A stretch of 14,370 nucleotides of DNA from positions 1-14,370 of the forward strand of contig JAVHOV010000019.1 in the NCBI GenBank assembly GCA_036170245.1, read 5' to 3'. The notes below the pieces were generated by a model, which saw nothing but the letters and a program-made list of their open reading frames with translations, had not been told where the DNA came from and made no database searches. Shown here one piece after another: positions 140 through 7,600 of this stretch (position 1 is its first letter; the number at the start of each line of letters is the position of its first letter). Position numbers and translations under genes: made by a program. This DNA is from an archaeon (lineage in GTDB: Archaea > Iainarchaeota > Iainarchaeia > Iainarchaeales > JAAZKV01).

Positions 140-1513
140 TTACTTCATTAGTAATTCTACTATTCCTGTTCCAACTTTAACTGGTTGACCAACAATTATG
201 TTTTCTACAACTCCAGTTAGGTTTTCTCTTTCTCCCTTGAAAGTGGCTTCTAGTAAGTGCTTTGTTGTTTCTTCAAATGCAGCTCTTGCAAATGGAGATG
301 CTTTTCCTTTTGTAATTCCTGTTCTTACTATTCCCTTTACTTCCCCAGAGAAAGTCATTAGATCGGCGAGTAGCATTATGTGTCTCACATCAACTTTAAT
401 TCCGTTGTCATCCATTACTTTCTTTAGTTCATTAACAATCATAGCTCTTCCTGCTTCAATACCCAATACTTTTGAAGTTTCAATTATATCATTAGTAAAT
501 ACTCTTTCAGCATTTATTCCTTCAAGTTTGAGAACTGATTTTAAGTTACTTCCACTTGTCTTAATGATATATTCGTCGCCTTCTTTTACAACAAGAGTTT
601 TTTCTATTCCTTTTACTCCATGTGCTTTTTCTTCTAGCAACTTTTGAAGTTCTTTTCTAATTTTCAAGTATTCATTCTTCTTTTCAAGTGAAAAGTGAAC
701 TGTGTTGTCTCTGTAAATTGATTTGAAATCTTTTAGACCTTTCTTCAAAACTTCAGCTATATCATCAACTTTCAAAGTCAATGGTTTTATTTTTTCTATC
801 AATATTTCAACAGCAATTTTCATATTTTCAAAATCTTCATTTATTTTTACAACATCAGCGTATCTTACATCAATTAAACTCTTAGCAAATTTTTCTGCTT
901 TATCTTTGTCTTTCTTTAAGTCATTAGTTAAGTATATTGTCATTGTTGGGTACTTAGCTTTACTTCGTCCATCAACAATTTCTTCAACTCTTTGAATTCC
1001 ACTCCCTACTGAAACTTCCGCAGCTCCAGCAAAGTGCTTTGTTCTTAATGTAAGCTGTGTTCCTGGTTCTCCTAAAGATTGTGCAGCAACTATTCCTACT
1101 GCTTCCCCAGGTTCAACTATTATTTGGTTATATTTAATCAAAATAGCATCAGCTAATTTGTCAGTTTGTTCTTTGTTTAATTTGTGAACTTCTGCAATTG
1201 CAACTATTTCTTCCAAAATTCTTTTTGGCAAGATTACTTGTTCCCAGCTTCGTTCTTTTTCTTCATAAACTTTTTCGCTAGGGGCAACTATTGATTCGTC
1301 TTCAACTTCAAGACCTTCATCAATTTCAGCAACTTTTCTTTTCTTTTTAGCGGATTTTACTTCTACAACTTCTGCAGTTTTTTCTTCGTGGGACTCACTA
1401 GTAACTATTTCGTCTTCTACTGCTGCTTCTTCTTCTTCAGTAACGTCTTCTTCATCGTCTTCGTTTTCAACAACTTCTTCTGTTGCTTCTTCTACAAAAT
1501 CTTCGCTAGTCAT
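140..1513 (-). CDS. rpoA2: DNA-directed RNA polymerase subunit A'' (Rpo1C) with acidic N-terminal extension
   Basis: Motifs [26 protein letters not shown]...[28 protein letters not shown] and L.GV.ENII.GQP..VGTG. Start moved from the TTG at 1528 to the ATG at 1513, which follows an SD-like GAAGGTGGGT. Confidence 0.97.
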
Positions 1514-1573
1514 TTTACCCACCTTCAAATTTTTTTTCCGCTATTTACTCAAAAATAATTCACAAGCAAAAAA

Positions 1574-6080: not shown

Positions 6081-6136
6081 TTTACCCACCTAACCATTAA
6101 TTTTTCTACTAAAATTTAAATTTTAATTTTCTAACT

Positions 6137-7600
6137 TTAAAGTTTCTTCAACTTTACTCCCTGTTTGTGTAAGAATTCTTCAACAGGAGCTTCTTTTGCT
6201 TCTGTAGTTACTTCTGCCATGAAGCATAGGTTCTTTACTAACCCACATTGAGGTCCATCAGGAGTTTCAATTGCATCCAGTCTTCCCCAGTGTGTTCCGT
6301 GAACATCACGAGCTTCATATAATTCTCTTGTCTTTGATAATTGTGATTTTACTTTTCTTAAATCAGTTAATGGAGCTAAGTAATTTACTCTATCCAAGAA
6401 CTTTGCAACACCAGTACTTCTTCCAATCCAGTTTCCTGTACTCATTGCGAATTTTATTCTTTCGCTCACTGCTCCAGGTCTTACAACTGTAGAAATATTT
6501 AGTTTTCTTCTTCTTGTTACAGTTCTATCAATTTGGAATCTCAAATCTTTTACAAAGTATTTGAAACTGTATCTGAATAAGTGTTCCATTAATTTTCCAG
6601 AGAGTTCAAGTCTCTTGTTTGCGTAGTGATCCTTATCATCTTTTCCACGAAGTCCGTATGATCTTTCAATTGCTTTTGTTGACATCATTGCCAAGTAATA
6701 AGCTTTTGCAAGTCTTGCTGGCTCATCTTGTCCAATGTGTGGTAGCAAGAATCCGTCAATTACTTCTCTTGCTCTTCTTAATCTATAATCAATAACCTGT
6801 CCAGGAGCAACGTACTTACCAATTTTATCAAGTGCTTCTTCTTCAGTATTAATATCGCATTCTTCCCAGTTCAATAGTAAATCGTTTTGTATTTCCTTTT
6901 CTTCAGGGAATGCATCAAAAATTTCTTTCTTTGTTTTTAATCCCAAAGCTTTGAATAAAGAAAATAGAGATAATTTCTTTGGACTTGTTGGGAATGAAGC
7001 GTACAATAATCCTTCAGGACTTCTTAAAATTCTTACTCTTCCCTTAAAAGCTCCTCTTGTTGAGATAACTTCAGATACAACTCCTTTCTCTCCTTGAGAA
7101 ATTAATACTCTGTCAGAAGCTAATACTTCTTGAGTCATTAGTGCTTTTTCACTACCGTTAATTATAAAATATCCGCCGAAGTCTTTTGGATCTTCGCCCA
7201 TGTCAATTAATTCTTCAGGACTTTTTTGATTCAACCAGCACAATTGCGATTTAAGCATTATTGGCAAATCTCCAATGAATGTTCTTCTTGCATCCTGTTC
7301 TACATCTCTTCTGTATAAACGCATTGTTAAGTATAAAGGCCCTGCGTAAGTTCTGTTTCTTAGTCTTGCTTCCATAGGAGTAAATTCTTCATGGGGAGAA
7401 CCATCTGCTTCCATGATCCTTGGTTTTTCAACTTCAATATTAGATAATTCAATTCTTACTTCTTCAATTTTTGGAACAATTAGGGCGTTTTCTAAAACTA
7501 TATCATTTAATTTTTGATCAACAAATTGGTTGAATGAATCAATTTCCATTTGTGCTACATTTTTGTTTTTTAAATAAGAATCAATTAGTTCCCATGACAT
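6137..7600 (-). CDS. rpoB2: DNA-directed RNA polymerase subunit B'' (Rpo2N, N-terminal half of split RpoB)
   Basis: Motifs IDSFN.F, P.EARLRN.TY..P, IG.LPIMLKS..C, GEDP.D.GGYFIINGSE, DDKDHYANKRL and H.THWGR...ETP.G..CGLVKNL. SD-like GCGGGGT upstream. Confidence 0.97.
   Translation of the reverse strand: MSWELIDSYLKNKNVAQMEIDSFNQFVDQKLNDIVLENALIVPKIEEVRIELSNIEVEKPRIMEADGSPHEEFTPMEARLRNRTYAGPLYLTMRLYRRDVEQDARRTFIGDLPIMLKSQLCWLNQKSPEELIDMGEDPKDFGGYFIINGSEKALMTQEVLASDRVLISQGEKGVVSEVISTRGAFKGRVRILRSPEGLLYASFPTSPKKLSLFSLFKALGLKTKKEIFDAFPEEKEIQNDLLLNWEECDINTEEEALDKIGKYVAPGQVIDYRLRRAREVIDGFLLPHIGQDEPARLAKAYYLAMMSTKAIERSYGLRGKDDKDHYANKRLELSGKLMEHLFRYSFKYFVKDLRFQIDRTVTRRRKLNISTVVRPGAVSERIKFAMSTGNWIGRSTGVAKFLDRVNYLAPLTDLRKVKSQLSKTRELYEARDVHGTHWGRLDAIETPDGPQCGLVKNLCFMAEVTTEAKEAPVEEFLHKQGVKLKKL

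Follow-up and report, generated by a model that had tools for sequence, protein, structure and literature searches.

Substituted mobile elements around a conserved catalytic core in the RNA polymerase of an archaeal order, Iainarchaeales

Can the moving parts around the active site of a cellular RNA polymerase (RNAP) be extensively replaced while its chemistry is left in place? The question is raised by the RNAP genes of a 14,370-nucleotide stretch of archaeal DNA (contig JAVHOV010000019.1; hereafter the window) from the order Iainarchaeales, for which an earlier note had proposed a systematically rewired catalytic centre. We find this description to be overstated: the metal- and phosphate-binding loops are nearly unaltered (1 of 50 conserved columns, the metal-B Glu lying just under the threshold and being uncounted), whereas the mobile elements and the hybrid/clamp elements have changed. 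By analogy with polymerases studied elsewhere, we consider it somewhat probable that this is a polymerase with an intact catalytic core, in which lineage-fixed residues of the mobile elements compensate for one another, the way in which the trigger loop closes is retuned, and metal B is bound more weakly or differently.

Residue numbers here are those of yeast RNA polymerase II (Pol II) unless given as positions in the window's own subunits. Matches of equal length connect B' 130-240 with Rpb2 740-850, A'' 138-186 with Rpb1 1058-1106, and A' 743-827 with Rpb1 766-850; these yeast ranges come from hit tables, and the residue alignments were made to archaeal chains. A column is called conserved if at least 90% of 48 references agree, all of them euryarchaeal (no TACK, Asgard or eukaryote rows; four A'' rows of intein length dropped). 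Counts for Iainarchaeales draw on 78 loci (L031-L088, L091-L099, L178-L188), with a denominator that varies with coverage and with the window's family over-represented. Which elements lie close to the active site was taken from element definitions and published papers.

The catalytic core has been kept. Two-barrel RNAPs share three catalytic Asp residues, Rpb2 D837, Rpb1 R446 and P448, and Rpb2 K979 and K987 (PMC2919709). All eight are present in the window, as A' D443, D445, D447, R408 and P410 and B' D227, K369 and K377. The catalytic aspartate loop (A' 437-452; 2849..2896, on the minus strand like every element below) is unchanged, with 0 of 14 conserved columns altered. The R1020 loop and the basic loop (4950..4994) are retained, the latter with K369 and K377, which we take from motif positions to be yeast K979 and K987. 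In the metal-B loop (5394..5432), D227 holds the place of D837, which is Asp in 64/64 Iainarchaeales rows. The earlier note had listed the aspartate, basic and R1020 loops and the trigger-loop His as kept, and this stands; the trigger-loop Gln can be added (Q158 and H165 of A'', for Q1078 and H1085, each 74/74 in the order).

Around this core, every change that had been named, in the trigger loop, bridge helix, F-loop (A' 760-764), link, metal-B Glu, fork loops and switch 3, is indeed present, and relatives across Iainarchaeales mostly share the same residues. The trigger loop (A'' 150-186; 971..1081) carries L159 (M1079), K164 (F1084), A169 (V1089), G175 (T1095), Q179 (P1099) and V181 (L1101), and the order has M1079L in 71/74 rows, F1084K in 74/74, Ala or Ser for V1089 in 74/74, T1095G in 73/73 and P1099Q in 69/73. 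The bridge helix (A' 787-824; 1733..1846) keeps its hinge glycines and has Q799 (E822), E801 (L824), G805 (A828), S807 (K830), K809 (A832) and Y815 (Q838); the order-wide counts are E822Q 73/75, L824E 73/75, A828G 72/75, A832K 75/75 and Q838Y 75/75, with Ser at K830 (Arg in the references) in 65/75. In the link (B' 146-169; 5583..5654), G155, K156 and H159 stand for P765, R766 and Y769, with R766K in 60/63 rows and His at the Y769 position in 62/63. The metal-B residue E836 is M226 in the window, and Glu is found there in 0/64 rows of the order (Leu in 32, Met in 25). Nine of 22 conserved columns of the F-loop (A' 743-781; 1862..1978) are altered order-wide, as are 16 of 46 in fork loops 1, 2 and 3 according to the per-element conservation table (B'' 388-458; 6227..6439). 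Among the latter is a fork-loop-3 Glu to Asp change at B'' 448, which we take to be yeast E529 by motif (61/62 rows). The hybrid-binding segment with switch 3 (B' 478-532; 4494..4658) has E513, K514, G525 and E526 order-wide and keeps its hybrid His. All of the residues F1084, P1099, L824, A828, the basic residue at 830, R766 and E836, by which a canonical centre is recognised, are thus replaced in both window and order. Some window changes are not order-wide, namely fork-loop-3 Cys to Asp, B' F370V and B' Y482I, none of which is core-order consensus.

The altered elements had also been called nearly invariant. This is so at most of the changed sites, where the references are invariant or nearly so, and it fails at a few: the metal-B Glu is found in 41/47 references, Met occupies the Y769 position in 44/47, A832 is Ser or Ala, and the F-loop Pro is missing from Thermococcales chains.

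Is such an enzyme simply decaying, a non-functional second copy, or an error of assembly? The radical look of the changes speaks for this, and nothing else does. The stretch is covered by contigs from four runs of one study, with 4 single-base differences and none at a hallmark site. As those contigs may be the source of this DNA, the real support comes from the independent genomes, about 60-75 related ones per site, that carry the same residues. Nearly all relatives have one match per genome, and the window's genome (an 867-kb bin, 86% complete) has a single A' match. The frames are open, fixation of the derived states extends over 29 families, and several synonymous codons are used at derived residues (for instance AAG 34 times and AAA 28 times at Lys164). 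Against 15 same-genus loci, the ratio of nonsynonymous to synonymous differences (pN/pS) is lowest in the bridge helix (0.041), the chemistry loops (0.044) and the trigger loop (0.071), rises to 0.115 for the link and 0.174 for the F-loop, and stands at 0.204 outside these elements; these values are uncorrected at a pS of 0.4-0.55, and the pairs, all including the window, are non-independent. The low values for the bridge helix and for the trigger loop argue against decay, the F-loop (0.17) being the less constrained of these elements within the genus. We regard decay, a second copy and assembly error as refuted, with next to no chance left to them, and the earlier proposal of a co-evolved rather than decaying site is supported in this respect by the fixation, the codons and the strong purifying selection.

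Are the changes concentrated where they would matter? Scored as lineage-fixed changes on a one-per-family set of 29 core families, 33 of 113 conserved columns in mobile elements are altered as against 74 of 532 in the rest of the enzyme (odds ratio (OR) 2.55, Fisher p 0.00014, circular-shift p 0.042), a figure to be read with the knowledge that mobile and chemistry elements were separated post hoc and that the shift p is 0.072 at a 98% threshold. Hybrid/clamp elements are also enriched (34/143, OR 1.93). The same mobile elements give an OR of 0.60 in Altiarchaeota and 0.81 in canonical Micrarchaeota, and 6 of 8 left-out euryarchaeal clades lie at or below 1.0, with another at 1.6 on a single change. 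Two Micrarchaeota subgroups are likewise enriched (OR 2.31 and 1.84). Once fixed, the derived states are held more firmly in mobile elements than elsewhere (mean fixation 0.88 vs 0.70). Hence the lineage has shifted its mobile elements beyond the background expectation, moderately, and not uniquely.

In what order did these changes arrive? Sorting them by shared group consensus, rather than by ancestral reconstruction, places 5 of the 33 mobile-element changes as common to Micrarchaeota or Altiarchaeota, 16 on the class stem, 6 on the order stem and 6 later. The 16 class-stem changes, common to the sister orders, have an OR of 3.35 and include the link His, E822Q, L824E, A828G, K830S, Q838Y, M1079L and V1089A. 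The six of the order stem are F1084K, T1095G, P1099Q, R766K, P765G and the fork-loop-3 Glu to Asp change. Sister-order rows accordingly have Glu at 824 in 8/8 and Phe at 1084 in 9/9. An obligatory Lys1084-Glu824 salt bridge as the cause of both changes was considered and rejected: Glu precedes Lys, and one family (f8, locus L081) has Lys with Met. This family nests within Iainarchaeales, and its bridge helix is either a reversal or a retained early state.

What might these residues do together? The altered elements are neighbours that touch one another in structures: the F-loop forms a cap over the link and over the trigger-loop tip, and fork loop 3 is contacted by the L824 equivalent (PMC2988716). 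Yeast Pol II mutants have been described at the same positions (F1084, P1099, V1089, M1079, L1101, K830, and Rpb2 R766, Y769 and E836; PMC5127505, PMC10002619, PMC3533926), though these were made in the laboratory, singly or in pairs, and in a different context. Function is lost in most variants at V1089 and P1099 and gained by changes in the M1079/L1101 pocket, and in the closed state K830 packs on V1094 (PMC5127505). E836A slows the enzyme and severely impairs its fidelity, R766A and R766Q are lethal, and G1097A + P1099A is fast (PMC3533926), while F1084R belongs to the lethal class and has a specific suppressor, Rpb2 Y769F (PMC10002619). In Methanocaldococcus jannaschii, the K830 equivalent is highly mutation-sensitive (PMC8204694) and the A832 equivalent accepts large side chains (PMC2776397). 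The Iainarchaeales single alleles have no row of their own in the yeast supplement searched, which holds combined alleles only.

Read against these mutants, the changes at V1089, P1099, the K830-V1094 contact, E836 and, to a basic residue, F1084 would make the closed trigger loop less stable or put metal B out of place, and those in the M1079/L1101 pocket and at the Y769 position would make the open state less stable or act as suppressors of the former defects. The early, class-stem changes (link His, M1079L, E824, G828 and S830) may then have made the later F1084K, T1095G, P1099Q and R766K tolerable. Changes in the link and pocket came before the lysine, and both mutant classes are mixed here, from which we infer a compensated network. 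The net outcome would be an enzyme that is still active but differs, in one direction or the other, in its speed, in its dependence on metal B and in how it deals with backtracked RNA. Altered fidelity or pausing, as the earlier note suggested, may be among the effects.

Several results weigh against this account. The clustering that had been claimed is not seen in the window alone (38 of 163 columns altered in eleven elements of the nucleoside triphosphate (NTP) site vs 147 of 532 elsewhere; OR 0.80, p 0.88); for lineage-fixed changes in the same NTP-site set, chosen before counting, it is only modest (34/163 vs 74/532; OR 1.63, p 0.024), with a circular-shift p of 0.11 in the first run, and the stronger figure for mobile elements is the post hoc one. 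One left-out euryarchaeal control clade reaches an OR of 3.8 (5/123), and enrichment is lacking in f3, f32 and f8, which are deep single branches (mobile-element OR 0.78-1.05). In family f8, Lys1084 coexists with a bridge helix that is close to canonical and with Gln at the Y769 position, so that no single residue pairing is obligatory and the proposed partners are not strictly required; similarly, F1084K occurs in 2 of 30 Nanoarchaeota-phylum genomes with Leu at the L824 position. Finally, yeast phenotypes depend strongly on context (PMC10002619), and the yeast suppressor pair, Y769F with F1084R, does not match the His with Lys found here.

An alternative is compensated drift, in which slightly harmful changes were fixed in a fast-evolving symbiont, patched and epistatically locked, leaving an enzyme whose behaviour is essentially ordinary. 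The whole enzyme has diverged, the 74 of 532 altered conserved columns lying outside the named elements, and similar enrichment with other residues is seen in long-branch DPANN archaea (the Micrarchaeota subgroups above, and the Pro of the Nanoarchaeota phylum described below). [quoted passage not shown] However, drift does not readily account for the firmer fixation in mobile elements or for the concentration of changes on the class stem; in yeast, an enzyme that lacks the metal-B Glu is slow and error-prone (PMC3533926), and the RNAP of Nanoarchaeum equitans has altered buffer requirements (PMC8204694). We therefore hold drift to be possible but doubtful, and keep to the compensated, retuned polymerase as our preferred reading.

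The earlier guess of altered cleavage-factor use does gain support, although not as the cause of the rewiring. PF01096 finds TFS in 0/151 Iainarchaeota genomes (0/55 among those of high quality, the genomes being incomplete) and in 4/4 archaeal controls, and no match in 201 Iainarchaeota searched with TIGR01384 exceeds the cut-off. In the window's genome, at 86% completeness, neither a TFS profile built from DPANN nor a search for Gre finds a match, and no TFS adjoins the csl4-rpoL locus. TFS is found in 0/51 Altiarchaeota genomes, and Micrarchaeota give 16/151 weak, diverged matches, a tally that may include one unpublished genome; the same search finds it in 119/121 genomes of the Nanoarchaeota phylum. 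A review places TFS in all archaea except Methanopyrus kandleri (PMC7289017), a statement contradicted by its absence across Iainarchaeota and Altiarchaeota. M. kandleri is alike in having an archaeal RNAP without a TFS gene and differs in being one species, compared with the Iainarchaeota, Altiarchaeota and Micrarchaeota genomes above. We found no paper on TFS loss in Iainarchaeota, Altiarchaeota or Micrarchaeota, subscription journals being largely uncovered.

Three candidates for a TFS or its replacement were set aside. The weak TIGR01384 matches in Iainarchaeota (15 loci inspected) are by eye ribosomal S27ae-like or Spt4-like proteins, or are open reading frames (ORFs) with an N-terminal ribbon only, and none is a full TFS. 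Gre as a replacement was rejected, there being no match in the window's genome. The acidic, low-complexity N-terminal tail of A'' (about 89 aa with 36 Asp/Glu; 1244..1513) was rejected as a built-in substitute: acidic in the window's family, it is usually basic in the order's other families, where lysine is abundant, and is missing from basal lineages. The ribbon-only ORFs (L197:1492-1770, L199:1183-1683, L200:1459-1959, L201:1462-1767 and L202:1195-1677) are small, with a TFS/Rpb9-like N-terminal zinc ribbon, no C-terminal ribbon, a short acidic-hydrophobic tail and varied neighbours. PF02150 matches that of L197 just under the cut-off (E 2e-5) and does not match those of L199 or L201; none was found in the window's genome. 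They are possibly TFS remnants. A minority of Micrarchaeota (L211:1477-1791, L213, L215, L216; L212, L214) have TFS-like genes that are short and diverged, with two ribbons and the acidic pair retained, and in two of these loci the ribbon terminates a longer protein.

Was the centre, then, rebuilt in response to TFS loss, so that it clears errors and backtracks by itself, through strong intrinsic cleavage or little backtracking? The F-loop and trigger loop line the channel that TFS enters, and many of the changes fall in these two elements. The metal-B Glu is missing in 22/23 rows of Micrarchaeota, the phylum with weak TFS matches, and the missing TFS and Gre, with nothing beside csl4-rpoL, point the same way. 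Yet Altiarchaeota, in which no TFS was found, are canonical in 21/21 at L824, A828, K830 (as Arg), Q838, F1084 and P1099, with Pro at T1095, and keep the metal-B Glu in 2/2, while the Nanoarchaeota phylum has TFS and an altered bridge helix of its own. This makes TFS loss an older background condition, which may have freed channel-facing elements; it is neither sufficient nor necessary and does not alone explain the rewiring. A response to TFS loss is accordingly quite unlikely as the explanation. Within our preferred reading, the retuned Iainarchaeales RNAP is predicted to work without TFS. A bolder version, which we think unlikely, would have a centre rebuilt in its trigger loop, bridge helix, link and metal-B site proofread for itself or avoid backtracking without any cleavage factor, the lysine beside the catalytic His acting as a new active-site group. 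If true, factor-free fidelity would be an order-wide natural solution within the archaeal-eukaryotic lineage. The absence of TFS in any case raises the question of how backtracked polymerases are restarted in TFS-less cells.

How new is such a polymerase? Radical changes in the bridge helix, trigger loop, fork loop 3 and metal-B motif were described for N. equitans, the precedent named in the earlier note, and were noted in the same elements in Woesearchaeota and Pacearchaeota; the reconstituted N. equitans enzyme is active and fluoride-stimulated (PMC8204694). Changes of this kind are therefore common and already described in other DPANN, in the same elements and with other residues, which goes part of the way towards one of the outcomes that the earlier note had said would refute it, and the available part of that paper does not mention Iainarchaeota. 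N. equitans resembles Iainarchaeales in an altered A832 equivalent and a lost metal-B Glu, and the window in its fork-loop-3 Cys to Asp change. We compared 30 Nanoarchaeota-phylum loci, 21 Altiarchaeota and 29 Micrarchaeota loci (one unpublished genome left out). At A832 the Nanoarchaeota phylum has Pro in 30/30 and Iainarchaeales Lys in 75/75, which sets the window outside the Pro type; F1084K, T1095G, P1099Q, L824E, K830S and R766K, the Iainarchaeales set, are nearly all absent from the 30 loci. That phylum has Tyr at Q838 in 29/30, a mostly canonical trigger loop, and a TFS, for which none was found in Iainarchaeota. Micrarchaeota show mixed states. Compared with the canonical archaeal RNAPs of Thermococcus (4QIW), Pyrococcus (8CRO) and Sulfolobales (2WAQ, 2PMZ, 7OK0), the window shares the split A'/A'', gene order, gapless element lengths and eight two-barrel residues, and differs in its order's replaced mobile columns, the low-complexity A'' tail and the lack of a detected TFS. 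Literature searches, again with subscription journals largely uncovered, turned up nothing on either the catalytic centre of Iainarchaeota or this residue set. Rewired DPANN centres are thus a known kind of phenomenon, and this residue set is new to the literature found.

Two side observations can be added. Among the Nanoarchaeota-phylum loci L259, L260 and L251, two genomes gained Lys1084 independently, and the trigger-loop His is absent in L260 and L251. Two further loci, L132 and L135, fall far from their labels in the B' tree and were grouped by the tree; one labelled Aenigmatarchaeota lies among Thermoplasmata and one labelled Methanosarcinales among Woesearchaeota, and both are likely mis-binned or mislabelled.

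No moving parts of cellular RNAPs have been studied more than the trigger loop, bridge helix and metal-B site, and several of the states fixed here fall in classes that are harmful in yeast Pol II (a basic F1084, loss of E836, most P1099 and V1089 variants). The order, which holds them together under purifying selection and has intermediate lineages that indicate how they were acquired in turn, offers a ready set of suppressor combinations for testing the balance of speed and fidelity. The weight of this is tempered by the divergent DPANN centres already published, which recur in several lineages.

The genes themselves form an rpoH-B''-B'-A'-A'' operon on the minus strand of the window with all frames open, and the four large-subunit ORFs are intact as had been claimed. 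Full-length family matches and operon order identify an archaeal multisubunit RNAP (Rpo1N/Rpo1C/Rpo2N/Rpo2C/Rpo5). The first gene, rpoH (Rpo5; 7667..7906), matches NCBIfam PRK09570 at 92 bits, over the cut-off, as do rpoB'' (Rpo2N, 487 aa; 6137..7600) PRK09606 at 558.6 bits, rpoB' (Rpo2C, 610 aa; 4257..6089) TIGR03670 at 836.9 bits and rpoA' (Rpo1N, 876 aa; 1574..4204) PRK08566 at 1053.6 bits, the last also being aligned to PDB chains. The 462-aa rpoA'' (Rpo1C; 140..1528), counted from a TTG, matches TIGR02389 at 387 bits, below the cut-off of 420.65, which is reached by rpoA'' in only 1 of 151 Iainarchaeota genomes; its true start is likely the ATG at 1513. Among named sequences, those closest to A' are Candidatus Iainarchaeum records (I. 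andersonii, 61%), with Micrarchaeota and Euryarchaeota next at 41-49%. These relatives place the DNA in Iainarchaeota (Diapherotrites), a DPANN phylum, and together with the trees they point to the order Iainarchaeales. Elsewhere in the order, at least part of family f26 has A' joined to A'' in one frame (L178; 3 genomes with open frames of 1262-1269 aa), and fork loop 3 of the L183 B'' contains an insertion of intein length.

Such operons are usually followed by a ribosomal-protein cluster. Here none is seen within the 139 bases left on the contig downstream, with no long ORF directly before the contig end. Upstream lie surface-protein genes, two tandem paralogues (8140-10503 and 10550-13504) encoding cysteine-rich repeat proteins whose N-termini are signal-like and whose C-termini carry membrane anchors, the second with an additional thioredoxin-like domain and MopE-type motifs. 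Beyond them are a DUF2203 gene (13618-14046) and, at the contig end, a C-terminal piece of a DDE transposase (14171-14368).

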